Shown: positions 506 to 63,530 of the stretch, piece after piece
How positions within the stretch are numbered: position 1 is the first letter of the stretch
Layout: each line of letters opens with the position of its first letter
Assembly: GCF_035084215.1 (NCBI RefSeq)
Contig: NC_090348.1
Span: 34,162,001-34,226,000 of the forward strand
DNA: 64,000 bases
DNA from: Heptranchias perlo
Taxonomy: Eukaryota
Reading direction: 5' to 3'
Notes under the pieces: generated by a model
Told to the model about the DNA's origin: nothing
Database searches by the model: none
Seen by the model: the letters and a program-made list of their open reading frames with translations, nothing else
Program-made: the position numbers and the translations under genes

Positions 506-652
506 ACTGTGATTCACAAAGTGCGAAATATTTCCAAATCTTGCAGCATCCACAGTGTACTCGTCCTCCACATAATCTAGGTCAAACAGGTAGGTGATGC
601 CTTTACTGTCATAAAATCTCCCACGCCTTTCTGCTTCTTCACTAGTAATTAC
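506..652 (-). CDS. SUV39H2: SUV39H2 coding exon 4 (SET domain; gene continues past the left edge)
   Basis: 147 nt, AG/GT bounded, phase 0-0; [49 protein letters not shown], typical SUV39H SET sequence. Confidence 0.96.
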
Positions 653-1460: not shown

Positions 1461-1893
1461 GGTCAGCTTGGCTCAGTTGCTTCCACTCTCAAGTCAGAAG
1501 GTTGTGGGTTCAAGTCCTGCTACAGACTTGAGCATGTAATCTAGGGTAATACTCCAGTGTACTATTGATAAATGCTGCATCATCGGAGGTGCTGTTTTTC
1601 ACGAGACGTTAAACCAAGATTCAGTGTGCCAGCTCAAGTGGATAAGAAAAATCCTGTGGCACTATTTGAGGAAGAACAGGGAGTTCTCCCAGTGTCCTGG
1701 CCAACATTCTTCCTTCAACAAATACCAACAACAGATTAGCTGGTCATTTCCTCCATATGCAGTTTGTGGGACCTTGCTATGCTTGCTTACATTAACAAAA
1801 GTGACTGCACTTTCAAATAAATCTGTTGTAAAGAGCATTGGGATGTCCCGAGGACAGGAAAGGTGCTATATAAATGCAAGTGCTCTCTTCTTT
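1461..1893 (+). mobile_element. tRNA-derived SINE (SacSINE1/Deu-domain-like)
   Basis: Head with TGGCTCAGT A-box and GGTTCAAGTCC B-box; tail ...ataaatgcaag; homologous to the copies at 21.8, 29.3 and 62.7 kb. Confidence 0.75.
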
Positions 1894-2169
1894 TGAAAGT
1901 CGCTGGCCAAAACGAACAGGGAAATGCACCGATTTTGTTACGAATACCTGTATTGATTTCCACTCCTTAGTATAACTCAAGATTGATTTTGTGCCATTCC
2001 TTTCACCATTTCTATTCCTCATTTGTTCTTGTATTAGATTTTTTTTAAATTTCCTGCTCATTAGAAAAGCTTTCAAGTGACTGTAGTACCCAATTCACAC
2101 ACTTGATGGCATTGTGTAGAAATATACCAAGGGCTCATTTTGAATCATATTTTCTAGTTCAGAATTAGG

Positions 2170-2650
2170 GATGAGGGAGGCCATTTGGCCCACCTTACTT
2201 TATCCACCCAGAGAGATCTAAACAACCCCCTATTGTAGCATAGAGTTGTTTCCTAAATAATTCCAGAATTTTTGCCTCTATTACTCTATCTGAAAGTTTG
2301 CTCCACACATTGATAACTGTGTGTTAATACGGATTTCCTGGTATCAGTCCTAAAATTACCTTTTACTAGTTTAAGCCAGTGTCCCCTAGTTCTACTCCCT
2401 CAGTTTAATTTAAAGTGATATTTTGGGTTAACGATATTATATAATTCTATAAAAATTACCTCTCAAACTTCTCCTCTGCTGAAAAGCTCAAGTTTCTCCA
2501 GTCTTTCCTCATGACTCAGACCCCAGATACTGGAAACATACTTGTGGCTCTTGTCTGCACTGCCTCCAGCACTTGAATAGCTCTCATTTCTTGGGGACTA
2601 AAACTGGATGCAGCATTCAAATGCAGTCAGACCAGAGCATTATAACCTTT
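2170..2650 (-). mobile_element. Decayed CR1-like LINE 3' fragment
   Basis: Degenerate matches to the CR1 3' region seen in better copies (tgtcccctagttcta, actgcctccag, aactgga). Confidence 0.55.
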
Positions 2651-3589
2651 GGTTATTGATTCCCATTGACAAGCTTGAGAGGGACAGATTGAGGCGGTGG
2701 GGGTGGGCGCATAACACACTTGGACACCTGGGAAGTGTTTTTCTCTCTCTCTCGCTCGCTCTTCCCTCTCCCCATTCAAAAGCGGTTACTATCTTTAGGG
2801 GAATTAAAAATTATAAATTCAAGGAAGGAGTAAGACATGGAAATTCAGTGCATTAAAAATAGCAAGATCTGTTTTTTTTTAAAAAGCAACAAGCTTGGCC
2901 TTATTCACTGGTTATACAGCTGTCTGATTTCATAAAATTAACTAAGCATTAAAATTATGTAACCCAGAAAAGACCAGTCTTAGTCCATTTTAAAAATATC
3001 TCCCTCATGATAATCAGTGATTCATAAACGAGGCCAACTAGAGAGCACCAGTTTTTAATTTGATAAGAGCTAGTGCCAGTTGGTCATAGCAAAGAGATGA
3101 ACAGCACAAAGGTGGTGGTCAGGGGACAACAATACAAAGCAGGACAACCAAGCAGACAGCCATCAACAACTGGCATTCATGCTGGCAGTCACATGTGCGA
3201 CCTTAAAGTGTAGGGGGGGGGGGGGGACTAGAAAAACAAACAATACAATTTCTTCATGAAGCTGAAAGAGCTACTCCCAACATAAATCTCATGGGACTCA
3301 AAAATCTAGTTTCAGGAAGTTACACAGGTTGCAAAATCTTTCAGTCTGCATAGGAAAAGTCAGCAAAAACAGAATATTTAAAAATAAAAAATGAAAAGCC
3401 TTCAATATACTTCATATCACACCAGTGGCATTCAAAAAACAAGAATTAATTACAATATTTACCATTCCACTGCTGGCCCAAAAAATGAAGCCAGGAAGTT
3501 TTAAGAATATTGGGCTTTTAAAAAAAATTTGGATCATGTTTTGAGTCACTGAACACAGCCATCAGTCCACTTCTTTCTACGTGCTGCCC

Positions 3590-4090
3590 ATCAGTAATAT
3601 TGTCCACAGGCACGGGTGCAGTACGTATGCTGGTAATACCTAGCTCTACTCTCCACTTCCCTCAACCACGTCCAAAAAAAGTAATGAGTCAAAATTTCTT
3701 CCAACAAACAATGGGAAGGCCAAGATACACTTTTCATCCCTATATAAACTTTGCTCCCCTGTCATTGACTCCACCTCCCTCCCTGGCCACTGGCTCAGGT
3801 TGAACCTTAGAATCCTGTTTGACCCAGAGCTGAGTTTCAAACATCATAGCTATTCACGACCAAGATCTCTTACTTCCACTTCCGGCACTCCGACCACCTT
3901 CACTCCGACTTTAGCCTCACCATCAACAAAATCTTTATTCATGCTTTTATCACCGCTAGACTCATTTTTTCCAATCTTCTCCTTGCTGGCCTCACATCCT
4001 TCACCCTCCATAAACTCCAACTTGTCCAAAATTCAGTCACCTAGATCCTGTCTTGCACTCAGTCCCACTCACCCACCACTCCTGTCACAC
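3590..4090 (+). mobile_element. Decayed L2-like LINE fragment
   Basis: Similar to 28085-28400 (gagctgagtttc..., cttccactt, ttcaccctccataaactc). Confidence 0.6.
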
Positions 4091-4489
4091 CATTATTCTC
4101 TTATAGTGGGCTGTTCAAGTTGTAGGAGTCAATTTAGTTCCATAAGGATAGAATTGGCTTGCAGGCCCACACCTTCCCAATGAGCACGTCCAGTGAGCAT
4201 TGCTCCTCACCAAGAGAGCACCCAATTGGGCAGTGAGCTGGAGTAACATGCATCTCCTGGGAACTCTGCATCCCTCTGACCTTAATTTCAGAATTTGGTT
4301 ATATCCCCAATTTTCTTTTTGGCAAAGGATATTAGGGATGTAGAGTGGGTCTGTAGGTATCCAGAGGGAAGAGACAGGGGAGGGTTGGGAAAGCAGGTTG
4401 CCACTTGGGGTATGGTCAATTCCTCAGGGCACCAGTGTAGCTGGGGAAAGGAGGGGGAGGGGGTTCTGCACCCAGGATGTTGCCTTGTT

Positions 4490-4493
<4 letters not shown>

Positions 4494-4520
<27 letters not shown>
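4494..4520 (+). repeat. (CA)n microsatellite
   Basis: Direct observation. Confidence 0.9.
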
Positions 4521-4900
4521 TTTTTGGGGCTGGTGCACATTTCCATTGTTTGTTTTACAACTCATGCCTTTGTTGTGCTTTTCACTATCTTAACTCTTTT
4601 GTTCTAATATCTTCTCATTGCCTCACCAAGATCATCTTTTATATAATTTAGCATGTTCCTCCTTCCCTACTGAGCAGTTTTCAACCCATTAATTTTGTGA
4701 TTGGAGTATCTGCTGTCTCGTTTCCTTCCCCCACCCAAAAAGTTATTTTGCTCATCTCCCAGTTCTGAAGAAGGATACAGTCAAATGCGGTTCAACTTCC
4801 AAGTTGTTTTTTTTCCTCAGAAAAAAAAATTAACCAGTAATTTGAACCAAGCAACTAGGAATTAATGATGTTCAAACTGCCGATATGGTCTAAGCAACAA

Positions 4901-6640
4901 GACCATAAGAGATAGGAGCAGGAGTAGGCCTTTTGGCCCTTCGAGCCTGCTCTGCCATTTAATGAGATCATGGCTGATCTGATTTTTACCTCAACTCCAC
5001 TTTCCTTCCTTTTCCCCATATCCTTTGACTCCTTTGCTGATCAAAGATGTGTCTAACTCAGCCTTGAATGTATTCATTGACTCCACAGCTTTTTGGGGTA
5101 AAGAATTCTAAAGATTCATGACCGTCTGGGAGAAGAAAGTCCTCCTCATTTCCATCTTAAACAGGCAACTCCTTATTCTGAGACTATGCCCCCTAGTTTT
5201 ACATTTCCCCCATTCCTCAGCAACTACCCTATCGAGTCCTCTCAATCTTATATGTCTCAATAAGATCTCCTCTCATTCTTCTAAACTCCAATGAGTATAG
5301 ACCCAACCTGTTCAATCTTTCCTCATAAGACAACCCTTCCCTACCTGGAATCAACCCAGTAAACCTTCTCTGAACTGCCTCCAATGCAAGTATATCCTTC
5401 CTTAAATAAGAGCACCAAAACTGTATGCAGTCCTCCAGGTATGGTCTCACCAGCACCTTGTACAATAGTAGCAAGGCTTCCCTGCTTTTGTATGCTCTGT
5501 ACCGCAGCATTTAGTAGTATTTCTCCATTCAAATAATATTATGCTTTTTTATTTTTCCTCCCAAAGTGGATGACTTCACATTTTCCCACATTATATTCCA
5601 TCTGCCAAATTTTTGCCTATTAATATCCGTTTGCAGACAATTTGTGTCCTCCTCACAACTTACTTTTCCACCCATCTTTGTATCATCAGCAAATTTGGCC
5701 ACAATACACTCTGTTCCTTCATCCAAGTCACTGATATATATTGTAAATAGTTGAGGCCCCAGCACTGATCCCTGCAGCACCCCACTAGTTACAGATTGCC
5801 ATTTTGAAAATAACCCTTTTATCCAGACTCTGTTTTCTGTTAGCCAATCCTCAATCCATGACAGTATATTACCCCCAACACCATGAGCTCTTATCTTGAG
5901 CAGTAATTTTTTATGTGGCACCTTATCGAATGCCTTTTGGAAATCCAAATATACTGCATCCATTGGTTCCCCTTTCTCCACCCTGCCCGTTACTTCCTCA
6001 AAGAATTCAATAAATGTCAGACACGATTTCCCCTTCATAAAACCATGTTGACTCTCCTTGATTGTATTATGAGTCTCCAAATGTCCTGCTACTACTTCCT
6101 TAATAACGGATTCTAGCATTTTCCCCAATGACAGATGTTAGGCTAACTGGTCTATAGTTACCTGCTTTCTGTCTCACTCCCTTCTTGAATAGGTGTGTTG
6201 CGTTTGCGGTTTTCCAATCCGCTAGGACCTTGCCAGAATCTAGTGAATTCTGGAAGATTACAACCAATGCATCCACTATCTCTGTAGCCACTTCCTTGAA
6301 GACCCTTGGATGCAAGCCATCAGGTCCAGAGGACTTGTCAGCCTTTAGACCCATTAGTTTATCTAGTACTTTTTCCTCTAGTGATAGTGATTGCTTTTAG
6401 TTCCTCCCTCCCTTTTGCCCCTTGGTTTTCTACTATTATTGGTATATTATTAGTGTCTTCTATTGTGAAGACAGTTACAAAATATCTGTTCAATTCCTCG
6501 TTTTCCATTATTATTTCCTCAGTCTCATCCTCTAAGGGACCAATGTTTACTTTAGCTGCCCTCTTCCTTTTTATATACTTGAAGCTTTTACTGTCAGTTT
6601 TTATATTTCTTGCTAGTTTACTCAATTTATTTTCTCCCTC
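4901..6640 (-). mobile_element. 5'-truncated CR1-clade LINE with frameshifted reverse transcriptase
   Basis: ORF fragments GPDGLHP, NYRPVSLTS, QHGFMKGKSCLT, YLDFQKAFDKVPH, QGSVLGP, FADDTK, RRMRGDLIETYKI. Confidence 0.92.
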
Positions 6641-7433
6641 TATTAGTCTCAGACTACTGGACTAAAAATAAATGAAAAGACAACTTATATTCTGAGCAGC
6701 TGATTAACCACCTGTTTTAATACTGCTCAGCTGCTCCAAGAACAATAGGAATTCCAGTAAAAAACTGATTGGCACAAGTGGAAAGGCTAGTTCATGCAAA
6801 TTGGTGCTGCCAAGTTCAATTTAAGCATTTTATTCACATGATCATTATATAGCAGCAATCTCTAAAAGCAGATTCCACTGCATTAGTGTGCTAGCATTTT
6901 GCACCATAGAGTGAGTTTTTAATTCCCAAAATAGCAAGCCAAAATCTTGGCCAGGCAAACATAGGTAAGGTACTTCCTAACAAAAAAATGTTTTGATGGT
7001 TGGGGTTGGCAGGGGGGAGAAAGAGAAAGGAGGAGGAAAAAAAGCGAGTCAATCTGATCGTATGGACTTTAGCCATTATAGGGAAAGAGGAAGGTGTTCA
7101 AAAGATAGCAATGATGCTATTGGGGCAGAAAACCAGGAGGTGACCATCAGCTACATTTGAAGAGGATAGCTGTAAGGAAGTGAGAGAGAAGGAAAACTGG
7201 CCTCAGAAAAGGTCACTTAACCACCATCGAATGGCTAATGGCATGCATATAGATTGTATCTATACACAAGGCCTTTCCAAGTAGATGCAAGAGGCTACAA
7301 CAGAGTCCAATAAGCTGCTGTCAGCACATTTTTCCGGTAACAGACCATCTTGCTTGACCAGAGAGTCTGTGATTTAATGTTAGTGCAGCATGATATTCAT
7401 GGCAATACCTACCACAAAATAAACACAACCTAC

Positions 7434-8102
7434 CTCTCCGACATATTCCATAACAAAACTATTCTTCTTGATTTTTTGGAGGGTTTTGATCCCCCACCCT
7501 CTTCCATTTGAAGTTCTAAAGATGCAGAGGTCATAAAGTGTACCTTTCTGTACCACTCTGTTTGGACACTGAAAACTGCAACTGCAGCAAGAATTACATT
7601 CAAAAATGGGTTTGCCTGGTGCAATCTTAAGTTGCCGTTGCTCATTGTAAGCAAATTGTGCCCCTGCTTCTTCCGGACAACATTTCTCCTCCAAACAGTT
7701 TAAACACTCACAGCCAACCAAAGGGTCCCTATTCAAATTTATTCCATGAGAAGGTTTGTATTGATTAATGTAATGGAAGTCCAATGGAGGAGGTTCAAAG
7801 TCTACTTCATTTTCCACCAGAATTTTACCTCGATGGTTCTTCTTCCGGTTAAGTTCTTCTTCCCATCTTTTGAGTGCTACTCTTTGTTTTGATTTCTTTA
7901 CAACATAGTCTGCAACTGCAGATTTGTAATCTTTATAGTTGTTCAATTTTAGCCTTTTTGCTGCTTTTACTTTTTCCAAGAATTTGCTTTGATCATCTTG
8001 AAACTGTTTTACAAGTCCGATACATCGGAGATTCCTCCTAGGCTCCCATGTGTTTGTAGATTCTGGCCATCCCTTCCACTTCACCAGATAGTACTCTTTA
8101 CC
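7434..8102 (-). CDS. SUV39H2: SUV39H2 coding exon 3 (chromodomain C-half, pre-SET, start of SET)
   Basis: 669 nt, phase 0-0; [21 protein letters not shown]...GCECLNC...CPNRVVQKG...GRGWGIKT...FVMEYVGE; acceptor tttttaag, donor GTAGG. Confidence 0.97.
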
Positions 8103-10044
8103 CTTAAAAAAGAGGGATAAAAGTTTAACATTTTAAAATTTAATTATCATTTTATTATAATTTATTTTTTTATCTTCACAAGACCCATGATTAAAAGATT
8201 AGTAAGAACACTTGAACAGTTTCAAACTTTGCCCCATTCCCTCCAAAGTGCATCCAGACAATATGGTTCAGTTCATCTGCTCACTTGTACCATCAAGCTA
8301 GTGTTGCTTTAAGAGCAAGAATAGATATTCTTGTAACTATTTTTGCGGTTTTAGTTTACCTTTGGAGAAAGTAAAAATAGTAGACATTACCGTTACAGCA
8401 TTACTCATTGATTTCAATATGGGAAGTACTATAACCATAAAATAAATAAAGATTTTAATAGATTAGAAATAGTAGTAAAGCTACTCCTAGCAACTTAGTG
8501 AAATCACTAATATTAGGTGCATCTTCAACCAGTGTGCAAACTAAAAATTAAGTGGTTGGCCCAAGGAATATAGAATTGTCTGGAACCCAAACAACATACA
8601 TTCAACCCAATTACAAACTTGAGACCGCAAAATAGTTATCAACATGGATCTTAGCACTCAGCTCCTAACTGTACTAGAGTAAGGATAATTCACTAAAATT
8701 TACATAATCAACCTCATACAAGCATAACCCACCCATTGCAAGATATTGTATAGCCATTATGCTGAACTCATCATTAGATTCAAACATTCACAGAACACTC
8801 TACTATTGTTCTGACAGCTTATGCCATCCAGACCAGGACAATATTAAAACTTTGCAATACTCCAATCCCTGTGCTATACATGGCACATATAGGTCAATTA
8901 TAACTCAAAAACTGTTCAAGAAATGTGACTTATCCAATTGTACAACTATACTGGAAAACCTCAACTAAATCTAGAGCTTCTGGTTGTAAGGCCAGAAACT
9001 GTTAACTAACATTCAGATCTATCAAGATGAATATCAATATAGGTTATAAAAGCACTTCTCAAAAATGCTAGCTTTGTAAAGATAGTACTGGAAACCAACA
9101 GCAATAGGCCAGGAACTATGTGCCTCCCAAGATAAAGGCTGTGCTGACTCCAGAATGCATAGGTCTGGAAAAAGAGCTGGTGTCCCACCTTCTTAAGTAT
9201 TGAATGGTGCAGGAACACAGCACTAAATATTGAATCACTTTTGTTTCTGAAGATCACAACCTATTTTCCACCTCAAGTCAAACCTGCATATCTTTTAAGA
9301 AAAAAGGTTTGAAGAAACAGATGTTAGATTTCAGGCAATGAACAGAGAACGCTCTTTATTAGGATTTTAGTTTAAAAGGAGAGACAACTAGAGGCAGCAG
9401 CTAAAATTATTCTACAGTAACCTGATATAGCCTATTTAAAGATGGGAAAAAGCAAGTGACAAGCAATTTTGACAACAGCTTTACAAGTCACAAATGGACC
9501 TACTTACTGAGTGCTCTTATTCTGGGAGGTGTGAAAAAACCCTTTAGGATCTGTAGTGAAATTGAAGCTACAAAAGCAGCAACCAATATCCTCAGCTGCT
9601 GCTACAGATTCCCCCGCTATATTGGTCAGCAAGTGCATGGTTGGAGGTAACATTGTAGGCTGAACAACCAGCAGCACCCAGACACTTTCTTTGGGTGCCT
9701 CCAACAAAAGGCAAATCCCTGCCATTGACGGTATTTGTCACGTTCACCTATTTGCCTTTGATGTCCCACATGGACCTATCCCCAATATCGAGGAGGTTCG
9801 CAGCCAAAAAGTTGTGTGCAGTTATGCTTTTGTTGCTGAATCCTTTTGGCCCACTGTACTAATGGGGTGAATTCTAGCACAAATGAAACTAACAGATTTA
9901 TCCAACACACGTGCTCAAGTATTAACACTCAGAAAACACGAGTCACGGGTCCCTAATTATAGCTATACCAAACAACTCGGCACAATTATTTCTGTTCATC
10001 ACTAGGGTTACTGGTTCAAAAAAAAGTTTCTAAACCATTCTTGG

Positions 10045-18930: not shown

Positions 18931-19294
18931 ACTTCCAACAACAAAAAAGGCTTAAGGAGGCACTCGAGCCTGCTGTTAAAGGTATAACGTTGCATTATCC
19001 GCATGCCTGGGTTATTTGCAGTCGAAGTTCTTTTGTGTATGGGGAACGCTGCAGTGCATTCGCATCCCGTGCAAATGGATGGTTGCTGTAATCTGTTTTC
19101 ATCCCATGCAGTGCTTAACGTGCATCTCCTACTAAATTGGTAAACTTGAAATCACAAAAAAAAAGTGCAAAATATAAAACAGAAGCAGAAAATGTTGAAA
19201 AGGCAGGTTAACGTTTCAGGTGTAAACTCTTGGTCAAAATTTGCTTATCTTCCCAGTTTTCATTGCAAAGATAGGGTCTGTGTCCAAAACATTA

Positions 19295-19510
19295 TGTGGA
19301 GATGCCGGTGATGGACTGGGGTTGACAATTGTAAACAATTTTACAACACCAACTTATAGTCCAACAATTTTATTTTAAAATCCACAAGCTTTCGGAGGCT
19401 TCCTCCTTCCTCAGGTGAATGTTCACCCCACCCGGAAGCCTCCGAAAGCTTGTGGATTTTAAAATACAATTGTTGGACTATAACTTGGTGTTGTAAAATT
19501 GTTTACAATT
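19295..19510. mobile_element. Palindromic Penelope-like non-autonomous element (family A) with 12-bp TSD
   Basis: 77-bp inverted arms at 19327-19403 and 19434-19510 (2 mismatches); TCCAAAACATTA duplicated at 19283-19294 and 19511-19522. Confidence 0.8.
19381..19419 (-). ncRNA. Minimal type-I hammerhead ribozyme motif
   Basis: UUCAC-CUGAGGA-A-GGAGG(AAG)CCUCC-GAAA-GC-UU-GUGGA; stems I and II pair. Confidence 0.72.
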
Positions 19511-19992
19511 TCCAAAACATTAGCTAGCCCTTTCTCTTTTTAGTTGCCCACCGACTTGCTGTGTGTTTCAAACATTTTCTATTTTTGTTACAAAAAGTGC
19601 ATGCAGCTTCTCTTTACAGGCACATTATGCAGTCTTAAAATCACAGCAAGTTAGCTTCTATTTATATTATTGGAAAGTAACATTTATATGTGTTTGTTTT
19701 CCCTTCAGTTTCTTTCCTTCAAGTAATGTTACAGTTCCACGGGCAGGCTTCTGATACCTTGGTCCTATAGTCGTTTTTCAAGTGTGAGCGATGTTGTGTG
19801 TTGCAGGATGTTTGACTATGGGGACATCACAGACGGGCCCGATAGACGTACTTCTAACAGTAATTTTCTTCTTCAAATAATTTTTTTAACAATTGATTAC
19901 AGTGACTCTCAATTGATATGCGTTTTATAATATAGGGTCTCAAAGAATATGCTTAATCCCGTATTTCAAGGTTACTTTATTCATAACATTAA

Positions 19993-20050
19993 AAACATAA
20001 AATGCTGGAAATACTCAGAGGGTCAGGCAGCATCTGTGGAGAGAGAAACT
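19993..20050 (-). repeat. Fragment of the family-B hammerhead-associated repeat
   Basis: aaaatgctggaaatactcag...gcagcatctgtggagagagaaac is the reverse complement of 52918-52975. Confidence 0.7.
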
Positions 20051-20654
20051 ATTACGTTATTCATAGTTTAGTATATATTATTTTAAATATTTTTTTGAAA
20101 AAAAGGATTAGCACTTCATTTATTACTTTCTTCAAAACCCCAGATACTATCATATTGTTTCATTGCTCGCAAAAAAATAATACGTTATTATTTCTCTGCA
20201 CACATACTGAAATAAAGCCCATTATCATCATTTGAATTGTGTGGTGCAACAGCACATTAGTTTAAATAATGTGATGTGCCCTGATGCACTGTGACTGTCT
20301 AATCCTTTGAAAGGAAGAGAGAAAAAGGAAGAGCAAAAAGAAATAAGCAGTGAAGGAGGAGACAGAAAGAGAAGAAAGTGAGGGAGGAGAGATTGGTAAA
20401 GAGAGAGACAAAAGTGAGCGAGAGCAAGAGAGAAATAGTGCAACCTCATTCCTATCAGTGTCCTTCGCTGCAGAGGTGTGAAGGACTTGTGGTGGGGCCC
20501 AGCTTGAAAAAGTTGTGGGATTTATTGTCATGAATAACAATTGACTTGAGCCAGCCTTGGGCCAAGAAGTGTGGATGGGGAATTCTGTGAATGGGTTATG
20601 CATATGCGTGGGCCTCAATGTCCCTAACATAATTTTGTTTGTAGTTACATTTAT

Positions 20655-23840: not shown

Positions 23841-24679
23841 TTTGTAAAGAATCTTGATGTCAACATAGTGAGGATTCAGGGAAAAGGAAAAGTTAGATGA
23901 TGGCAAATTTGGAGCTTTGGAGAAACAAAAAAGGAAAATTCAAAGGGGCATTGACCATAGTAGCATTGATAAAGTAGAGAAAGACAAGGAAGGAAGAATG
24001 GTTGCAATTGCAAGTGAAAGACCGGTTACAACCTAGTGGTGAGACAAGATGCTTTTTCTTTCTGATTGCAAGGTGTGAAAAAGAAAGAAGTTACTAGCAA
24101 TGAAAAATGGTGAGTTTCCTACCACCCTCATTGGTGAAACCACTTTTACAGTCACAAGCCTGGCAGCTGAAAGTAGTGGCATGTGAGTGTTGAAAACACA
24201 ACTACCAATGACTTGTTTTGTTATGAACTGCTGGACACATAAAACACTGCTGCAAACAAACACACTTGATGTGGTTAAAAACGGAATTACTCTGGGTTTG
24301 ACCATTCAATTAGGAGATCAGAGTAGATGAACAGAATTTCTAAATGTGATAAAAATAGAAAATCCCAGAAATACATAGCAGGTCAGTCAGCATCTGAAAA
24401 AAAGGGATAAGTTAGTGTTTTGGATGGGACAGTTCTAATCTCTCATTTGAATAGTTGCACCCACAAAATAGTTCCAGAATTATTCTGATTTTAACCATGT
24501 CATGTGTTCAGTGCTGATGAAGGGTCAAACATTAACAATTTTCCCCTTTAAACTCTCCCTAACCTACAATGATGAGTTCCAGCATTATTTTTACTTAGCA
24601 ATTAAACTACTAATTTAATTGGCCACTTCAATGATATTTGATGTTTATATACAATAAAGTAATAATACTTACATGGGAA

Positions 24680-36259: not shown

Positions 36260-37516
36260 CTGGTCAATAAAACAAAATTAAGCAAAAGCTATGAAGTAGG
36301 TAGAAAGGTGTGCTGTAACTGGTCATCTTATCAAAGTAAAACAATTATTTTACACAATGCATTTCTCCCTCTTTATATCTGATTTCCAAGGTTTAAAGCT
36401 GATTTCATCTCAACTATTTGCAACTCAAGTTAATCCAAAAGTTGACACTTAGCTCTAACAGAAACACAATATTCAGGACATAATATGACCAAAAGTAATC
36501 CAGGTTTCCTTACACTATGTTGCACCCTATGAGTACTTAAATTTAATATTCCAGGGTTCTTGGGGATTATAGTGATGTAAATAAATAGCGGGGTGGGGAG
36601 GGAAAAAGAAAAACAGAAGCACCAATGTGCTCCTCGCCAATAACTTGTGGAACAATATACTAACAGCAGAATTAATCTCTACAATAAAATATATATGGAA
36701 TATAAAATCCTCAGACCCTGCTCTATAACAGTTGCTTGTTAAAACGTTTTTAAAACAGTCTTACCCCATTTGCTTACTGTTATTGTTTTGTCCATTTTGG
36801 ATTTTTTTTTTTTACATTCACACATTTTCTAATGTCATTATAAATATATTTTGATTACATTAAGGTTTTTTGGCTGGTTGTAATTGTGCTTGCATGTCAT
36901 GGGTTTAAAAGATTGAAGGAATTAGTTTTTGTTCCGAGGTTCAGCTGGGTCAGGGAACAAGGGGTTCTTCTCCACTAGTAGTCTTGCATTTAAAAAAAAA
37001 CTTCTCCAATTATGGTTTCTTATCTTTTTGGTCCTTCTCTATCATGTATCATTACGAGGCAATAGGAGGGGCAGAAGACCTACACCCAGGTGATATGATT
37101 TTAACCAAACCACTGGACAGGCAGATTACAACTTCCTTTAGAGAAGCACCGTAGCTTTACTCAACACCTCCCTTGATGGCCCAGTTGAGAATAAGAACTC
37201 ACCACTACATCACAAATCACAGAAAACAAACATATATAAACAATGCAAGGAAACGCATTGTTTTGTCATAAATGCCAAATACTGCATCAACTGAATGACA
37301 CAAATGGAGTGATCTAAACCTAAACAGCATTCCAAAACTTCACTAGCATCCTCTAGTGGCACAAAACCATACATTTATCATGTGTTATGCAGGTTTTAGC
37401 CAAAACAGTCACAACAAAATCCACTCAGCTTCAGTGTTAACCTTGTACTTGGACGATGGGAGAAGATTTTCTATCTGCACTATGTGTAACAAAATCATAA
37501 ATAGTTCCACATTTAT

Positions 37517-37604
37517 CTGAGGAAGGAGGAAGCCTCCGAAAGCTTGTGGATTTTAAAATAAAATTGTTGGACTATAACTTGGTGTTGTAAAATTGTTTAC
37601 AATT
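37517..37604 (+). mobile_element. Solo 5'-truncated family-A Penelope-like fragment with a hammerhead core
   Basis: CTGAGGA-A-GGAGG(AAG)CCTCC-GAAA-GCTT-GTGGA, followed by the same 3' sequence as the 19.3-kb arms. Confidence 0.8.
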
Positions 37605-37874
37605 CATAAATAAAATCACAATTATATTAGATGTCACCAATTGTGAAAATAATTGAATTCTTTATAATAAATAATAATTTATTTTCTGTTAACCTTGAAG
37701 TTAGTCAGATTTGCATGGTTCCTAGCAGCCACATACACAGGGTAATGGCAGTGCCCTGGCACAAGCCCACCATCTCAGCTGCAGGCATCCAATGCAAAGA
37801 AAAGGGGAGGGGGAATTGCAAAAAAGGGGGAGAAACTTACCAAAATCCCTTGACAAAAGCACCTCAGCTCCCTT

Positions 37875-43001: not shown

Positions 43002-43292
43002 CTGTTAACACAAAAATAAATCCAATTAGCCAACTTATGAAATAAAACCTCAAAATTGTTGAAAATTAAGTTATGTAATCTCAAAACACATCCATTATTA
43101 ATGGTGGGCTCCATGATCATTATGACACTGGATAGCCAAGGTTTGATCCTCTGTTTATATACTTTATCTCCAGCCTTGAATAAGAACATATTATGATTTA
43201 GTACTCCCAATGCAGAGCTTTACTCGATGGGAGAACATACTAGAATTTTGGATGTGGAGATCAACGTACCCCATTCTCAACCTGCTTGATTT

Positions 43293-45385
43293 TAGAATCA
43301 TAGAATCTTACAGCACAGGAGATGGCGATTCGGCCCATTTCACCGGCTCTTTAAAGAGCTGTCCAATTCAGTCCCACACCCCAGCTTTTCCCCCACAACG
43401 CTCTTCAATTAGTCCTCTTTTAAGTACGTGTCCAATTGCCTTTTGAAAGTTCCTTTGGAATCTGCTTCCACCACCCTTTCAGGTAACATGTTCCAGATCT
43501 TAATAACCCTGTGTGAAAAAATCTCTCATTTCTCCTTTAGTTCTTTTGCCAATTATTTTAAATCTATAATCCACTTGCCAGAGGGGATAGTTTCTTGCTA
43601 CTTGCTCTATCAAAACCCCTCATGATTTTGAATACCTCTATTAGGTCGCCCCTTAATCTTCTCTGCTCTAAGGAGAACATAGGAACAGGAGTAGGCATTT
43701 AGCCCTTCGAGCCTGTTCCACCATTCAATGAGATTGTGGCTGATCGGTGACCTAACTCCATATACTCACCTTAACCAAAGGGATATGGGCTAACAAAAAT
43801 TTATCAATCACAGATTTAAAATTAACAATTGAGCTAGCATCAACTACCGTTTGCAGAAGAGAGTTCCAAACTTCTACCACCCTTTGTGCATAGAAGTGTT
43901 TTCTAACTTAGCCTAAAAATTAGAGCCAAGACTTTCAGGACCATGTCCCCAGTCCTAGACTCCCCAACCAGCAGAAATAGTTTCTCTCTATCCACCCTAT
44001 TAGTTTCCCTTAATATCTTGAAAACTTAGATCAAATCACCCGCTAATCTTCTAAATTTCAGGGAATACAACCCTAGTGTGTATAATCACTCATTGGAATT
44101 TAACCCTTGGAGCCCAGGTATCATTCTAGTAAATCTATGTTGCACTCCCTCCAAGGTCAGTATGTTCTTCCTATGGTGCAGTACCCAGAACTGAACAATA
44201 CTCTAGGTATGGTCTAAACAGGGCTTTGTATAGTTGTAACATAACTTCTACCTAGTCCTCTAGCTATAAAGGCCAGCATTCCATTAGCCATTTTGATTAT
44301 TTTCTGTACCTGTATGATATTTTAATGATTTACATACATGGACCCCCAAGTCTCTCTGCATCTCCAGTGTTTCAAGCTTTTCACCATTTAGAAAGTACAC
44401 TGACCTATCCTTTTTGGGTATAAAAGTGGATGACCTCACACTTGCCTACAGTGAAATCCATTTGCCACAGTTTTGCACCATTCAATAAATCTTATTAATA
44501 TCTCTCTAATTTTATGCTTCCATCTACACTGCTTACAGCTTCTCCAATCTCTCCACGTAACTGAAGTCCCTCATCCCTGGTAAAACTCCTCTGTATCTAC
44601 TCCAAGGCCTTGACATCCTTCCTAAAGTGTGGTGCCCAGAATTGTACACAATACTCTAGCTGAGACCTAACCAGTAATTTGAAATGGTTAAGCACGACTT
44701 CCTTGTTTTTGTATTCAATGCCCCTATTTACAAAGCCAAGTATCCCAGACGCTTTCTTAACCGCCTTATCAACTTGCCCTGCCACCTTCAAAGATTTGTG
44801 AATATGCATCCCCAGGTCCCTCTGCTCCTGAACCCCCATCAAAAGAGTACCGTTTAGATTATACTGCCTCTCCATGTTGTTCCTCCCAAAGTGAATAACT
44901 TCACACCTATCCGCATTAAATTGCATCTGCCATGCGTCTGCCCATTTCATCAGTCTGCATATGTACTCCTGAAGTCTGCTACTATCCTAAATACGTTGCC
45001 AAGTTTTGTATCATCCGTAAACTTCGGAAGTGTACTCTCTATACCCATTGCATTCTTCGCTCCAGTCAGAAAAACATCCGTTCACCACTACTCTCTGCCT
45101 CCTCTAGCTTAGCCAATTACATACAAAGTTACCACTGTCCCTTTAAAGCCAGGTGCTTCTATTTTCTGAATAAGTTTGTTATGTGGTACTTTATCAAATA
45201 CCCTTTGAAAGTCCATATATATATCTACTGCACTACCTTCATCAACGATCTCAATCAGGTTAGTCAGACACAATTTACCTTTAACAAATCCGTACTGGCT
45301 ATCCTTTATTAACCCATGCTTCTCCAAGTGAGAATTAATTTTGTCCTTGACAATGGTCTCCAGGAGTTTTCTGTCCATTAATTTT
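43293..45385 (-). mobile_element. CR1 LINE fragment with a second CR1 nested at about 43680-44535
   Basis: RT fragments QYGFVKGKLCLTNL, MDFQRVFDKVPH, WQMQFNADRCEVIHFG; host sequence ...aaggagaac resumes at agcttctccaatc. Confidence 0.88.
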
Positions 45386-45631
45386 GATAATGTCACATGG
45401 TCACCATTATGAGATTTTATTCATCATGCCAGAAGCAATGAAGCCATTTAGCACACAGGCATAAACATTACAGGATCAACTTCTTTTAGAATGTCCACTG
45501 TAGTGCCATCCCCACCAGTGGCACTGTTCCATGTCGTAGCTATGATGTGGAGATGCTGGTGATGGACTGGGGTGGACAAATGTAAGGAATCTTACAACAC
45601 CAGGTTATAGTCCAACGATTTTATTTTAAAA

Positions 45632-45668
45632 TCGCAAGCTTTCGGAGATTATCTCCTTCGTCAGGTGA
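45632..45668 (-). ncRNA. Minimal hammerhead ribozyme motif (one stem-I mismatch)
   Basis: UCAC-CUGACGA-A-GGAGA(UAA)UCUCC-GAAA-GC-UU-GCGA. Confidence 0.62.
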
Positions 45669-46104
45669 GTAGTGAATGAGAGCTTCTCAAATCGCATATC
45701 TTATATTAGGCTGGGACACCATCACACCAATCAAAGGTGTCGTTGGTGTTCAGACAGGTTGGCCACGGAAAACAGTAGGTCCCAGTATGCTGAATACACA
45801 TTGTGTCAAATTACACAGACAGAGAGAAAGAGACCCGAAAGGCAGAGAGAGAGAGAGAGAGAGAGAATTTTCAGTTTTTTTTAATCTGTTATCTGTTTTT
45901 AATACAACTGAAAATTCTCTCTCTCTCTCTCTGCCTTTCGGGTCTCTTTCTCTCTGTCTGTGTAATTTGACACAATGTGTATTTAGCATACTGGGACCTA
46001 CTGTTTTCCGTGGCTAACCTGTCTGAACACCAACAACACCTTTGATTGGTGTGATGGTGTCCCAGCCTAATATAAGATATGCGATTTGAGAACCTTTCAC
46101 TCAC

Positions 46105-46141
46105 TCACCTGACGAAGGAGATAATCTCCGAAAGCTTGTGA
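46105..46141 (+). ncRNA. Minimal hammerhead ribozyme motif
   Basis: UCAC-CUGACGA-A-GGAGA(UAA)UCUCC-GAAA-GC-UU-GUGA; perfect stems I and II. Confidence 0.72.
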
Positions 46142-46237
46142 TTTTAAAATAAAATCGTTGGACTATAACCTGGTGTTGTAAGATTCCTTACATTTGTCCA
46201 CTTCATAGCTGTTCTGATTTCTGAATTTTAAAAAAAA

Positions 46238-46943: not shown

Positions 46944-47049
46944 CCTTCATTTTCTCAAAAATCAATTTCATTACTTCCTCTGGAGAGACAATCTTGAGCT
47001 CTTCCCCAGTATCAATCTCATATCGAGGTTTGCCATCCTTATCAATAAC
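46944..47049 (-). CDS. HSPA14: HSPA14 coding exon 5
   Basis: 106 nt; VIDKDGKPRYEIDTGEELKIVSPEEVMKLIFEKMK; GTGAGT donor. Confidence 0.96.
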
Positions 47050-47699: not shown

Positions 47700-49030
47700 A
47701 AGCTTTTAGAAACGATAATCCAGGACAAAATCAACAGTCACTTGACAAGTGTGGATTAATAAAGGAAAGCCAGCACAGATTTGTTAAAGGCAAATCGTGT
47801 TTAACTAACTTGATAGAGTTTTTTTGTGAGGTAACAGAGAGGGTTGTTGAGGGCAATGCGGTTGATGTGTATATGGACTTTCAAAAGGCAGTTGATAAAG
47901 TGTCACATAATAGACTTGTTAACAAAACTGAAGCCCATGGAATAAAAGGGGCAGTGCCAACATGGATATGAAATTGGCTAAGTGACAGGAAACAGAGTAG
48001 TGGTGAACGGTTGTTTTTCAGACTGGAGGATGGTATACAGTCGTGTCCCCCAGGTACTAGGACCGCCGCTTTTTTTGATATATATTGACTTGGACTTGGG
48101 TGGACAGGGCACAATTTCAAAATTTGCAGATAACACAAAACTTGGAAGTGTAATAAACAGTGAGGAGGATAGTAACAGACTTCAAGAGGACATAGACAGT
48201 TGGTGGAATGGGCAGACACATGGCAGGTGAAATTTAAACGCAGAGAAGTGTGAAGTGATACGTTTTGGCAGGAAGAATGATGAGAGACAATCTAAACAAA
48301 ATGGAGCAATTCTAAAATGGGTGTAGGAACAGAAAGGCCTGGGGGTATATGTCCACAAATCTTTGAAGGTGGCAGGACAGGTTGAAAAAGCAGATAAAAA
48401 GCATGCGAGATCCTGGGCTTTATAAATAGTGGCATAGAGTACAAAAGCAAGGAAGTTATATTGAACCTTTATAAAACATTGGTTCGGCCACAGCTGGAGT
48501 ATTGTGTCCTAAAGTGCGGTGCCCAGAATTGGAAGGATGTCAAGGCCTTAGAGGGTGCAGAAAAGATTTACTAGATTGGTTCCAGGGATGAGGGACTTCA
48601 GTTACGTGGATAGACTGGAGAAGCTGGGGTTGTTCTCCTTAGAGCAGAGAAGATTAAGAGGAGATTTGACAGAAGCGTTCAAAATCATGAAGGGGTTAAA
48701 TAAAGTAAATAAAGAGAAGCTATTCCCATTGGCGAAAGGGTTGAGAACTAGAGGACACAGATTTAAGGTGATTGGCAAAAGAACCAAAGGTGACATGAGG
48801 AAAAACACTTTTATGCAGCGGGTAGTTATGATCTGTAATGCGCTGCCTGAAAGGGCGGTGGAAGCAGATTCAATTGTGGCTTTCAAAAAGGAATTGGATA
48901 AATACTTGAAGGGAAAAAGTTTGCAGGGAATGAGCGGGGGAATGGGACTAACTGGATTGCTCTTACAAAGAGCTGGCATGGGCTCGATGGGCTGAAGGGC
49001 CTCCTTCTGTGTTGTAACCATTCTATGATA
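47700..49030 (+). mobile_element. CR1 LINE RT/3' fragment
   Basis: KGKSCLTNLIEFF, MDFQKAVDKVSH, KFADNTK, LFSLEQRRLRGDL, TRGHRFKV. Confidence 0.92.
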
Positions 49031-49469
49031 TTAAATTTTGCATTTTGTAAACAAATAATTCAATAATTATTATACCTAATAGAGGTAAAAGAATAATCAA
49101 TAATTTTATTTCCAATGAGACTAATCTTGGTAGGATTCATAAATCTTCACATAGTATCATGAAAACCTGTCGAAACCACATCGCCTTGATGGGATGAAAT
49201 TATGATCTGAATGGATGGGGATAATGTGCAACTTGTGATATAATCAGGGCTTGTGACTTGTCATAGTGAAATACATTGAAAATCATGGACCCATTACAGG
49301 GAAAAATTTTTATACTGCTACAATTGGTAGAATAGTATTTAAAGCCCTATATTTTACAACAATTCTAAAATGCTGGATTAGGTATAAATCACTTCATTCT
49401 AAAAACTAAAATCCTGAGTGGGTATTGATGACAAATGCTCATAGACTGAGAATTAATTGCTACAAGTGA

Positions 49470-50445: not shown

Positions 50446-52114
50446 CTGGCAAAAAGTAAGAAACAACTTTGAGAACAGGAGGGTACAACTTAACTGAAAG
50501 AATGTCAATGTATAAAATTACAAAATACTTCCACTCTTTTAAACATTGTTATTATATGCTTTCCAGTCACAACGTATAAGTACACTATTTACTAGACAGA
50601 GACAAATAATTTAGTTTATTGGATTTCAATCCACTGTCCCCGCCCTGTACATATGCCCTGATGGTTTATTGATCACACTTTTGGTTGCTGATGCTCTATA
50701 CATTGCTATACAGGGAATATGTTCTTATTTTTCATCACACCTGCTTTATGTTTAACAGGTATTTTATCATTACTTCCTATAATATTCTCTCTTCCCAGAG
50801 TATTTACATTATCCATATTATTTTTTGTACTCCAACCTTTGCTCTTGTCCCCTTTTTTTCCCCCTATCTTTAGATTACTATTTGCACCAGGACCATCTCG
50901 TCTTCACCCCTCCCCCACATTGGTTTAAAATCTTTTCTACGGTCCTATTTATACTTTCCACTAAGACCTTGGATCCAGACCAGTTCACGTGCCGCCCATC
51001 CCAGCGGTACAGCTCCTTCCTGTCTCCTCCTTCCCACACGACATTTTCAGCCACATATTGAATAGTGGAATGTATTACTTTGGTTTCATTTTATAGTTTG
51101 AAACTTTCGCAGTTAAGATGTGCCAGGAATCCTGCTCTTAATAACCATATAGGCCATTGGGTGAGGACAGGACTGGCATTGGCTGACCCATGGTCAAATA
51201 GCCTGCCAATACTCACCATCAAGGCTCACATGTGAACACTGACCACTTCACCAGAGGGTACGTGGCACCTATGAAACTGCAACCCAACAAGGAGTCAGTG
51301 CAGTTGGAAAATAAAATCAAGGAAGAAAATTATAGGGAAAATAAGTTTTTTTTTAAAAAAGGGTCTTTGTACAATTCACATTCCAGAGTGGACTGTTTTT
51401 GTGTTTCAGATATTTAAGAGGCAAGCAGCATATACATTGGGTGGATGAGCACATCTTAACTACAAAAGTTTCAAATTATAAATTAAAACTAAAGTAATAT
51501 ATTCCACCACTCAATTCATGTTATGGATTATATTGTTTCTGCTCTCAGAAACATATTGGATAATCATGCACAATAGAAATAACTGTCTCCTTAATCAACA
51601 AATCAAGAGAACAAAAGAGTCAATTTACTTATATTGGTCAATCGAGCTTCCTTTTATACACAAGTTACTTATCCTTACAAGCAATAAGAATAAAAATATG
51701 ATTTCATTTGGAATTCTCGCACAGGTTTGAGAATTTAGAAATACACTATGAATTCACCAATTAAGGAGCAAGTACATTCATTTTATTAACAAAATCCTTG
51801 ATATCTGCATGTGATGAATTGCATAATTGCATGCCAAAGCAAAAGGTTTTACAGACTATATTAATTTATAAAATGGCAATCAGTTATTAAAAATTATCTT
51901 CATATTCAGTGTAATGCAGCTTCATATTATAAAAAATTCACCTTGGACAAAACATGGTATACAATCCTTGCACTTCTCTATAAAGTGCATATAAAATGAT
52001 CAAATATTTCATATCTTCCCACAGTGCAACTTAGGCTACAAATATTTGCACTGCATTTGCTAACTAAGCAAACCAAGATATATTTACATAGGTACCAAAC
52101 ATTTAAACACTTAC

Positions 52115-52749: not shown

Positions 52750-52980
52750 TAATCACTCCTGCCCTCCACCCCATCAGAGGCCTTCCCTTTTGTTCTTTCC
52801 TCCCCTTCCCTTCCTTCTCCCCCCACCCCCACTTTGCCTGGCTCTGTACTTGCTTAAAAACTGTTAATTCTTCAACTTCTTCCAGGTCTGACGAAAGGAC
52901 ATCGACCTGAAACTAACTGTTTCTTTCTCCACAGATGTTGTTTGACTTGCTGAGTATTTCCAGCATTTTCTGTTTCTATT
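52750..52980 (+). mobile_element. Family-B Penelope-like repeat with a hammerhead-like core at 52888-52918
   Basis: CTGACGA-A-AGGAC(ATC)GACCT-GAAAC, followed by ...acagatg...gctgagtatttccagcattttctg. Confidence 0.7.
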
Positions 52981-58105: not shown

Positions 58106-58777
58106 TTTTAAAAAGTCTAAAGCAAAGAAACTACTTAGCAATTCTAAAGCTTTTGAACAAAACCAGATTTGTCTTTCTCAAAGCCACATAATAAAGATAT
58201 AGTCGTGGAATTTTGAAACCTCCAAGTCTTCATGAAAAAATTGCAGTTGAACCTTGCAATCCATTATTTTTCATGAACAAAAAGTACATTAGAATGGATT
58301 ACTGATGTCTCCACAAATGTTGATACCAACATAAGAGTTACAAATTTTATAGAATGAAACTTGAGCTTCAAAAATTAAGTGGTTCGAATGTCAACCTCCA
58401 CCCACCGCCACAAACTCTTGACTTTTATTATGTAAAATTCTGAAGGGTTCAGTTTTGTACCTAGACAAAAAACATATTTGAGAAATGCTACTTAAGAGAC
58501 CAATTGTAGTCCATAATATATAATGCTGCCCATGAAGCAGGTTTGTTTTTCTGTAGCCTATCCAAGTTGTGTCGAATACAATGCAGCAGCCTCACATCTC
58601 TTATCTTTCCGTAGTAAAGTGTAAAAAGGATGATGACTTTAAAGGTCAAAAATATATATATTTTATAGTTATTTATATGCCTAAAGGTTAACTTTTTAAG
58701 AGTTCCATTCATTATAAACTATGTTTTTGAATTTGGTATTTCTTTGAGATTTTTGTTTCACATTTTAAAATTCTCAG

Positions 58778-58905
58778 TATGCATTGGATTTCTGGAGAGA
58801 TTTTATCAGTATTTGAAAGCACAGGATGTGGAATTGACCCCTGCAGTCGTAGTAAATGAACTGATGCTAATATGTGAACATACCAAAGGAAAGGAAAACC
58901 GATTG
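58778..58905 (+). CDS. CDNF: CDNF coding exon 2 (saposin-like domain)
   Basis: 128 nt; VCIGFLERFYQYLKAQDVELTPAVVVNELMLICEHTKGKENRL; ARMET/MANF/CDNF family; head-to-head synteny with HSPA14 favours CDNF. Confidence 0.92.
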
Positions 58906-58929
58906 GTAAGTATGTGATATTTGGTACAC

Positions 58930-59412
58930 ATTTATTGTGGTTGTTAATTGGACTGCAGTGAAAAGGAAAAGGTGCAAAGTAGATTTACTAGGATGATACC
59001 AGGAAATAGCCATGGTGAGAAACTTTTTAAAAACTAAGGTGGTATTCAGTAGAGCAGAGAAGGTTCAAGGGAAACCTATTATTGGCCTCCACAGTTTCAA
59101 AGAGGGTAAACATTGAAAGACTGTTCCTACTGGTTGCTGAATTGGTGACAAAGGCCCGCAAGCATAGGATTTTTTAAAAATTAAAAACATAAAGGGGGAG
59201 GTTAGAAGTTTTTTTAAAATTAGAATATGGAATACATTACCACAATTGAAAGTCAGTCATAGCATTTAAGAGGGAATTAAACACGGGTCAAGAAAGATAT
59301 TGGAATAGAGGGACACAGCAGGAAAATTGAATTAGAGGGGATAGTTCTGATGTGTACCTGGCACAGGCACGATGGCTGAATGGCCTCCTCCTGTAGTGAA
59401 ATTTGTATGATT
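58930..59412 (+). mobile_element. Decayed CR1 3' fragment
   Basis: agatttactaggatgataccagg, agagcagagaagg, ggctgaatggcctcctcctg tail. Confidence 0.7.
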
Positions 59413-60680
59413 ATTTAATTACAAAGACATTATTCAGTGTGGCTGTATATTGTACCATCATTGGACAAGGCCATGGAGTGGGAATGCTGCTTTATTGTCT
59501 CACTCATTTACCAATACTGCACAGGATTTGGCACTAGGAGGTGAAGTATCTCTCTGCATGGAGATGGGCAATTGCTGGGCAATCCTATCTGAGCTACTGT
59601 CATGCAAAGGGGAGCTAAGAAGGTGGGCTGGAGCAGGCCATTCATCATCCACACGCTGACATTATTAGCATTTTTTTTTGGTGGTTTATATTGTATTGAA
59701 ACAAAGGAATATTATGCTACATTGTACTTGTCTTTTTTAAAGGATATTAATGGTAATATATTCTTGCATCTTATTAGTTCCACTGCACACAGCTTGTGCT
59801 TAAATTTGTATTTAGTTTTCTTTCTGCTCTGCTGCTTCTCTTTTCTAGAAATTTGATTTATGAAATGCCCATATGTTCTGACAAGCTCCACGCCCCCACA
59901 TAAACCAGTGGCTGGTTTCAACAGCAGTTAGAATTAGATTAAATATTCAGCTAAGTAAAAATGGAAAAAAAAACTACTTATCCATTAGTGGTATTGGGAA
60001 TGTATAAATGAACACTGGATGTCCTGGTGTTGATGTTTATACAGTGAGCAAAAGTGACTACATGATGCAAATAATTAAGTCATGAGTATGTTTTGACCTG
60101 TCAGTTCAGCAAGTTGTATAACTATCTCACAAGAACTTAAATAGTAGTCTGTGTAAATGGCAGCTAACTTGAGCTGTTGCAAGCTAAAACATTGTTATAA
60201 CTGAAGGAAAAAATAAGCAAATTGTGACCCTATTTTCATGCACAGAGCTGCAGAGCAGCATCCTTATGCGTGGATGTGGCAGAGACTATGCTTGGGATTT
60301 AGTCTGCAGCCCGCTTTAAGGTATAAAATGAGTTACTACTACATGACAAATTACCCAAATTTTAGCTTCAGCTCAGAAAATACATCAGAATTTAATAATT
60401 ATATATCGGCAATCATGATAGAAGAATTGCAGACATTGATTTGATATGGATGGTCTCCACTACATTGGGCTTGGATAACATTAATCCACTGGCTTCTTAC
60501 TTCTTTTCTTCTAAATACATTTAGACCTCTGTGAATCAGTCCCACCACTACTTTATAAGCAGAAGTCATAATTGTTTGCCAAAAGTTTTTTTTGAGTGCT
60601 GCATTTATAAAATATGATTGTGATGGTATGCTGTGAGTGTCTGTATTACATAAGTATGTAATTTAACTTTTTTATAATAG

Positions 60681-60822
60681 TGCTACTATATTGGAGCAAC
60701 AAATGATGCTGCAACTAAAATTGTCAATGAAATAGCCCGTCCTATGAGTGCACATGTACCTGTACTGAAGATTTGTGAAAAGCTGAAAAGGAAAGACACT
60801 CAGATATGCGAACTGAAATATG
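60681..60822 (+). CDS. CDNF: CDNF coding exon 3 (final exon not seen in the window)
   Basis: 142 nt; [47 protein letters not shown]. Confidence 0.93.
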
Positions 60823-61194
60823 GTATGAGTAACCTCATTTTCTCTACTGTGTGCATTGTTTTGAATGTATTATTTTTTGAGAGCTGTTTGAGGTGTACTC
60901 TTTTACAAATGTATATCTTGTGTCTACCGTGTGCTTGTATCCGTCACACTTCAGGAATCCCACTTGATATGCAAAATATGTGTCACTTGCACGTGATTGG
61001 CTCATAGTTCATATTTATAAAACCAACAAATCGCAACTGAACAGTTGAGGAACGTACCAATCAAAAGTAGGCAAAGTTGGTATATTTCAAATTTTAGAAG
61101 TATGAAATCAGCAAAAGCTTATCATTTTTTAAAAAAAGAGAATCAACTTAGAACTACAGTGAAATTTGGTCCGACGGACAACCATAAAATAAAA

Positions 61195-63125: not shown

Positions 63126-63427
63126 ATAGATTTCCATGGCTGCAGAATGTCCCTGCTGCCTCTTATCTTTCTGTCCTTCTATTTCTTCCCTCAGTTTCTC
63201 CATTGTAACTGCATTGGAATCAGCTACTGGTGTTCTGATTTTGAAAGATGTCAGGTGTCAGAAATTTTTAATCGTCACTAATGTACAACACCTTAATCCT
63301 CCTCCATTTCACACCTTGCACAATTCACTGCATATGAAGTATGTAAACTGTGATGAATAAGCTACAAATCAATGAGATTAGAAAATTGGTGTCTACTAAT
63401 GCCATTCTGATTTAGTATACCCTGTAA

Positions 63428-63530
63428 CAAAAACAGAAAATGCTGGAAACACTCGGGTTAGGCAGCATCTATGCAGAGAACAGACAGCTAACATTTTGGG
63501 TATGGACCCTTTGTCAGAACTGGAAGACAT
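63428..63530 (-). mobile_element. Family-B repeat with a decayed hammerhead core
   Basis: Reverse complement ccagtt-CTGACAA-AGGGT(CCAT)ACCC-AAAA-TGTT-AGCT...tttccagcattttctg. Confidence 0.65.

Follow-up and report, generated by a model that had tools for sequence, protein, structure and literature searches.

The window analysed here, a 64-kb stretch of the Heptranchias perlo genome, carries the HSPA14 gene on its minus strand, where mapping of the protein placed 14 coding exons, with an exon 100% identical to the named Heptranchias perlo HSPA14 record. The gene is flanked on one side by SUV39H2-like exons encoding chromo, pre-SET and SET domains (485-8132, minus strand) and on the other by CDNF-like exons encoding an ARMET domain (58669-61004, plus strand), an arrangement that agrees with the amniote gene order. 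Alignment of the arms and mapping of the exons confirmed that a palindrome of about 630 bp lies in HSPA14 intron 5 (46943 to about 43002), as an earlier note on this DNA had proposed, ~740 nt from coding exon 5 (46944-47049, minus strand) and 2.5 kb from exon 6. Coverage by RNA-like contigs includes exon 5 but not the adjoining unique intron. Other inverted repeats were also seen in the gene: an old pair of LINE remnants (43291-45350 and 47719-49035, 68-73% identity) brackets exon 5 from introns 5 and 4, and intron 3 holds an unrelated 67-nt inverted repeat (51057-51123 and 51449-51515, 87%, 325 nt apart) without a hammerhead.

The palindrome measures 630 bp (45572-46201) and is composed of a left, pseudo-LTR (pLTR)-like arm of 305 bp in the HSPA14 sense (45572-45876, minus strand) and a right, tail-less arm of 296 bp antisense to the gene (45906-46201, plus strand). 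When aligned, the arms show 290 matches, five substitutions and three indels (1, 4 and 6 nt, the last within a GA repeat), in agreement with their description as near-identical arms of about 300 bp that differ by a few substitutions and in GA-repeat length. The 29 nt between them (45877-45905) had been taken for a spacer. The length holds, but this is not pure spacer: about 11 nt (45877-45887) are filler resembling the neighbouring bases, while the remaining ~18 nt (45888-45905) are family sequence that forms part of the right arm (a contig covers 45888-45955, and loose ends fall before 45888). Similarly, the palindrome itself stood where the element had been placed (45546-46201), but the element really starts at 45542, with a tail and a target-site duplication that had gone undescribed. 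The tail, 30 nt long and A/C-rich (45542-45571, minus strand), is common to a sister copy at 19291ff and absent from the right arm, and is thus a one-sided tail of the 30-40-bp class looked for in insertions of EN+ Penelope-like elements (PLEs). Before 45542 the family contigs turn heterogeneous (15 and 19 contigs, with agreement of 0.4 and 0.37). An inverted 8-bp repeat of the flanks was considered and rejected, since placing the tail end at 45542 makes the flanks a direct duplication: 8 bp on the left (45534-45541, plus strand) match the right copy (46203-46210, plus strand) at 7 of 8 positions, with a CpG-type mismatch and one extra base (46202) before the right copy. A match of this quality has a chance of 0.0072 when 5x3 boundary freedom is allowed for, and the duplication at this locus is imperfect, with a stray base.

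The arms appear to be non-coding. No Pfam family was found in the five frames that overlap them, as expected from the earlier reading that they hold no meaningful ORF, and a search with the arm's 71-aa antisense frame did not turn up any longer protein. Word matches in the right arm (46045-46105, plus strand) mark putative promoter elements: a reverse CCAAT at 46045, a TATA-like word at 46071 and Inr-like words at 46096 and 46100. An AATAAA word lies in each arm, at 45620-45625 (minus strand) on the left and at 46148-46153 (plus strand) on the right.

Each arm also carries a minimal type-I hammerhead. The left one (45632-45668, minus strand) has its C3 at 45664 and a predicted cut between 45636 and 45635; the right one (46105-46141, plus strand) has its C3 at 46109 and a predicted cut between 46137 and 46138. 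As the earlier note had it, the core, the extra A and the AATAAA are present in both arms, together with a 5-bp stem II and a palindromic 15.1-16.1. The UCAC/GUGA stem I that was said to close each arm is an intact 4-bp helix on the right; on the left its second pair is broken by a U-to-C change at 45634. Because of this break the left arm fails a relaxed hammerhead descriptor that finds three copies in the window (46109 on the plus, 19414 on the minus and 37517 on the plus strand) against 0.01 expected by chance. The 45634 change is private with respect to the other three window copies, and a rough calculation of the active-dimer energy gave -9.9 for the left arm versus -17.7 for the right. 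The suggested comparison with Rfam models lent no help: the 64-kb window gave 0 hits at the gathering threshold, with no hammerhead family, and no hammerhead was among 47 weak matches in 1 kb. Rfam miRNA matches were rejected as sub-threshold hairpin matches.

Two sister copies in the window are shorter than the 630-bp palindrome and differently structured. The first (copy B, 19283-19522, no strand assigned) is a short head-to-head palindrome with a tail on its left arm only and a perfect 12-bp target duplication (19283-19294 and 19511-19522). The second (copy C, 37517-37604, plus strand) is a single tail-less arm in HSPA14 intron 12 that begins exactly at the hammerhead C3; the surrounding region (37495-37613) shows a ~9-bp target-site duplication and 13 nt of filler with a few bases like the tail end. 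In both palindromic copies the tail ends at a similar distance past the start of stem II (115 and 112 nt), and the tail-less ends fall at 80-85 nt. The hammerhead core, stems I and II and a palindromic helix III are accompanied by covariation: the fifth pair of stem II changes from A-U in the intron 5 palindrome to G-C in copies B and C, and a pair in the downstream hairpin changes from G-C to A-U. Moreover, none of the 22 variable places listed for the family contigs falls in the hammerhead core. A remnant of a second repeat family (19553-19590) lies directly beside copy B, which may therefore be a nested insertion. The second, older repeat family occurs at 52888-52980, and also at 19990-20054, 24349-24416 and 63422-63527; it has a degenerate hammerhead-like core at 52888 (plus strand) in HSPA14 intron 1 and is probably another PLE end.

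To place the palindrome within its family, we used four sequencing runs in the form of contigs, three from one sample and one from another organism. Summed depth in the DNA run X1 rose from ~7 over unique intron to 1.2-2.7e5 for most bins inside the arms and to 2.7e6 at the hammerhead and 3' end; summed contig depth is no copy number, and a steep 3' bias is visible in it. A step of about tenfold coincides with the 5' boundary of the ribozyme, just past the TATA- and Inr-like words. The family is thus very large and 3'-biased. Fourteen of the 15 listed joints (117 in total) connect the left arm with the right, every one at a pair of coordinates of its own, with clusters near 45606-45616 and 45660-45669, so palindromes with varied centres appear to be its normal product. 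Some joints reach a depth of 100-420 (1-7 contigs), versus ~7 for a single locus, which indicates that certain short centres recur, either as hot spots or as re-amplified palindromes. None of the 15 listed joints skips the whole element, and neither these joints nor the 24 listed loose ends (of 771) fall at the predicted ribozyme cut. In the family sequence that precedes the right arm, a stop codon stands ~18 nt before 45888 and may close the ORF of the parent.

These contigs bear on the earlier proposal of a non-autonomous element that moves as a palindrome. If this were a retrozyme- or MITE-like unit copied by PLE machinery, the recurrence of short centres at high depth would be readily explained, and retrozymes have been reported as non-autonomous PLE derivatives, with one chondrichthyan among their hosts (10.64898/2026.07.22.740005). 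The proposal is nevertheless less well supported than insertion of a PLE end, and we consider it improbable: centres vary widely, with 14 of the 15 listed joints differing, the sister copies are structured otherwise, and contigs ending at 45888 continue into other sequence and not into the left arm. Furthermore, a retrozyme is built of direct repeats in tandem that each contain a hammerhead, whereas here there is only an inverted pair, whose hairpin hides the ribozyme. Given the variable inverted junctions, the palindrome is likely rebuilt at insertion.

A DNA-transposon MITE with long terminal inverted repeats would account for the long inverted arms and an 8-bp duplication, but it predicts equal termini, a fixed interior and target-site duplications of fixed length. 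What we found was unequal ends, one of them tailed, centres that vary, arms that also occur singly, and duplications of 8 bp (7/8), about 9 bp and 12 bp (perfect) across the three window copies; depth is also 3'-biased and the hammerhead stems covary. Such an origin therefore has hardly any claim on our belief.

We likewise hold it extremely unlikely that the palindrome is an assembly artefact from a fold-back read. In favour of an artefact, no listed contig spans the centre plus unique flank. Against it, the arms differ at five sites and by three indels, and where one of them is mutated the other retains the letter of the family; the unit is flanked by a target duplication, and a contig of 1535 nt extends from unique intron 28 nt into the right arm (just under the 31-nt rule for bridging). 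Compared with the family majority, changes at 45683 and 45761 are private to the left arm and changes at 45984 and 46035 to the right, as expected of neutral decay on both arms, while both share an allele at 45789/45987 that is missing in most family contigs of the RNA-like runs. On the left side, the contig of unique flank from X1 ends at 45531 and falls 10 nt short of the element, which could reflect heterozygosity at or near the site.

We next looked for a PLE parent. No PLE ORF remnant was detected in the window by Pfam on 129 frames, tblastn or an HMM of 120 PLE proteins. Collections of metagenome, viral and prokaryote sequence contained 0 matches to the exact arm motif, a BLAST comparison of the arm with 148 metagenome and viral loci returned a single 33-nt match, and among the best 120 of 1237 PLE protein matches were proteins of lamprey and lizard, with none named as shark. 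A shark parent with reverse transcriptase and GIY-YIG domains was accordingly not found in the window or the collections searched. A gapped pattern made up of the core and AATAAA, in which stems are not required, matched 29 viral loci and at least 119 metagenome loci, the latter in 28 of the 64 parts of the collection. Stems I and II form in 29 of the 119 metagenome loci (0.0012 for random sequence) versus 0 of the 29 viral ones; this is the unbiased figure for pairing, the rows of our hammerhead alignment having been chosen for it. The 29 stem-forming loci come from seven assemblies, 22 of them from one. Remnants of PLE reverse transcriptase or GIY-YIG domains accompany nine of these 29 loci (from three assemblies), compared with one of 109 loci without stem II. 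In eight metagenome loci the hammerhead and AATAAA lie 86-219 nt past the PLE ORF remnants, and in a ninth 842 nt past. PLE ORFs with reverse transcriptase or GIY-YIG domains stand beside hammerheads of the same layout at L021:25-2306, L052:172-1366 and L054:2253-3023. In L021, RVT_1 and GIY-YIG both score above the Pfam cut-off and end 159 nt before the core; in L052, 74 nt separate the core from the start of an ORF, and sister copies stop just past its ATG. The position of AATAAA, 8-14 nt past the core, is built into the pattern, yet it recurs in several independent families. Pairs of opposite-strand hammerheads in L006 and L025 were rejected as palindromes, being two different families. As judged from sequence, the layout of hammerhead plus AATAAA marks PLE ends, though this does not prove a shark parent; the link from the shark family to a PLE ORF would run by analogy, through motif layout in unrelated animals.

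Taken together, the tail, the target-site duplication, the hammerhead, the family contigs and the metagenome layout support the origin first suggested for the palindrome, from a PLE pseudo-LTR with a minimal hammerhead. The locus presents an inverted, 5'-truncated head-to-head copy, with a junction that varies in the family and target-site duplications of variable length. We therefore think it likely that this is a doubly 5'-truncated, head-to-head PLE pseudo-LTR insertion of a high-copy shark family, with a ribozyme predicted to be silent in HSPA14 pre-mRNA. Seen this way, the palindrome is probably a routine by-product of transposition rather than a regulatory device of a new sort. In the mechanism we envisage, the GIY-YIG endonuclease of the element would make a staggered cut, and each target strand would prime reverse transcription separately, a distal start giving the tailed left arm and a proximal start the tail-less right arm. 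Both copies would halt after about 300-330 nt and be joined centrally with short filler; gap filling would give the 8-bp duplication, and both arms would later gain private mutations.

The step of two-ended priming is one that we favour by a small measure. Each arm holds sequence that the other lacks, the left its tail and the right ~18 nt at the centre. These two asymmetries are more than a single folded-back cDNA can supply, so we infer that the target strands were primed separately. The asymmetry at the centre might alternatively stem from a deletion that later struck the tip of the hairpin. The same PLE origin might also have produced the mirror arm by snap-back self-priming of one strand, with the tip repaired later. 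This is the published reading of head-to-head pLTRs (PMC3846280), and it fits both the filler, which resembles slipped copies of neighbouring bases, and the allele shared by the arms, which points to one template and is equally compatible with separate priming. However, a tail on one arm and an extra centre on the other would need a second event, and the tail is one-sided in copy B too, so that we regard snap-back as rather unlikely, if still worth serious consideration. Returning to priming of both strands, we suggest tentatively, and with a little less than even confidence, that such palindromes arise from two priming events on opposite strands, mostly from short pLTR-promoter RNAs and with no ribozyme cut, and that the shark fossils are numerous enough to settle how PLE inverted ends form.

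What would become of the element in an HSPA14 transcript was addressed by RNA fold prediction. For the whole unit the predicted folding energy is about -546 kcal/mol, with a predicted pre-mRNA duplex of 300 bp; in the full-length fold every core base is paired to the opposite arm, and the probability of stem II is about 1e-15. The idea that the long hairpin masks its own ribozyme is thus upheld by prediction, with the core buried in the arm-arm duplex. Since transcription of HSPA14 would yield the antisense arm first, with which the sense ribozyme would pair on emerging, masking would be immediate. Each transcript carries just one sense ribozyme, in HSPA14 the mutated left-arm copy, which would be further handicapped by its broken stem I and by having no tandem partner with which to form a dimer. 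On this model the ribozyme is predicted to be inactive in the HSPA14 transcript, and the element, folded in the RNA as a long hairpin, would be removed by splicing.

Such a hairpin might have been recruited for HSPA14 regulation, through splicing, editing, intronic polyadenylation or small RNAs. The predicted 300-bp duplex and the AATAAA in the HSPA14 sense would lend themselves to this, and domesticated intronic hammerheads exist in amniotes (PMC6155905). However, stem I of the sense ribozyme is broken, both arms have private changes, the nearest splice site is 740 nt away and the palindrome is one of very many copies, all of which makes recruitment very improbable.

A few A-to-G differences in the element sense were seen in the RNA-like runs only: 46092 A>G in 11 contigs each in X5 and X6, and T>C at 45670 and 45685 in X6 only, probably in one contig. 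All three are absent from DNA of the same sample, and give a weak hint of editing of family-level transcripts. The locus also suggests that shark pre-mRNAs contain many long duplexes from this palindrome family, possibly as a main A-to-I substrate, which we offer purely as a lead. To our knowledge, the shark lineage is without Alu-like pairs.

By itself the locus carries little weight, likely being one of very many PLE stumps; its value is as a record of mechanism. Two published readings compete, self-priming on an antisense template (PMC3846280) and extension of two strands from two start sites (PMC11167929), and counting arm asymmetries across the shark genome would directly test how PLE head-to-head ends form. 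A literature search found no publication on the shark family or on twin priming in PLEs; the family may already be contained in the data of the retrozyme preprint (10.64898/2026.07.22.740005) or in Repbase. Head-to-head tailed pLTRs and paired opposite-strand hammerheads have both been published, and the palindrome is of this known kind.

Among known systems, the non-LTR retrozymes of that preprint resemble the shark unit in being non-coding, hammerhead-bearing and PLE-derived. They form tandem direct arrays that can dimerise in cis, whereas the shark unit is an inverted pair in which each strand has a single sense ribozyme. Ultraconserved intronic hammerheads of amniotes (RECK and others; PMC6155905) are likewise of type I and sit in an intron, but they are canonical and conserved, while the shark ribozyme is minimal, high-copy and decaying. 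Much closer are the minimal hammerheads of metazoan PLEs (Cervera and De la Pena 2014, PMC4209133), which occur as dual motifs on opposite strands ~100-700 bp apart and show no activity as monomers and low activity as dimers. The shark arms share with them the extra base between positions 9 and 10.1, G10.1-C11.1, a short stem I and a palindromic 15.2-16.2, and differ in that the HSPA14-sense copy is mutated; the available text of that paper and two of its supplement files hold no shark example.

In the anole element Poseidon PAc (Anolis carolinensis), the ORF begins at stem II and reverse transcription initiates 111-118 nt into it, at two sites that delimit the tail; extension takes place on both target strands and does not depend on ribozyme cleavage (Frangieh et al. 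2024, PMC11167929). The tail bounds thus lie about 110-118 nt past the start of stem II, much as in the shark copies, but at the place in stem II where the PAc ORF begins, stop codons close all three frames of the shark arm. Finally, the typical structure described for PLEs comprises an inverted pLTR, an optional 31-bp tail and an 8-10-bp target-site duplication (PMC3846280, PMC8557442, PMC8969392), and the pLTRs of A. vaga have a layout of promoter words similar to that at 46045-46105 (PMC3846280). The portions available of PMC3846280 and PMC8557442 do not name the shark family. Like the EN+ PLE insertions of those two papers (Arkhipova et al. 2013, PMC3846280; Craig et al. 2021, PMC8557442), the shark palindrome has head-to-head pLTRs, 5' truncation, a 30-nt tail at one end only, a target-site duplication within an 8-12-bp range and TATA/Inr-like words; it departs from them in that both halves are truncated inside the pLTR, so that no ORF remains.
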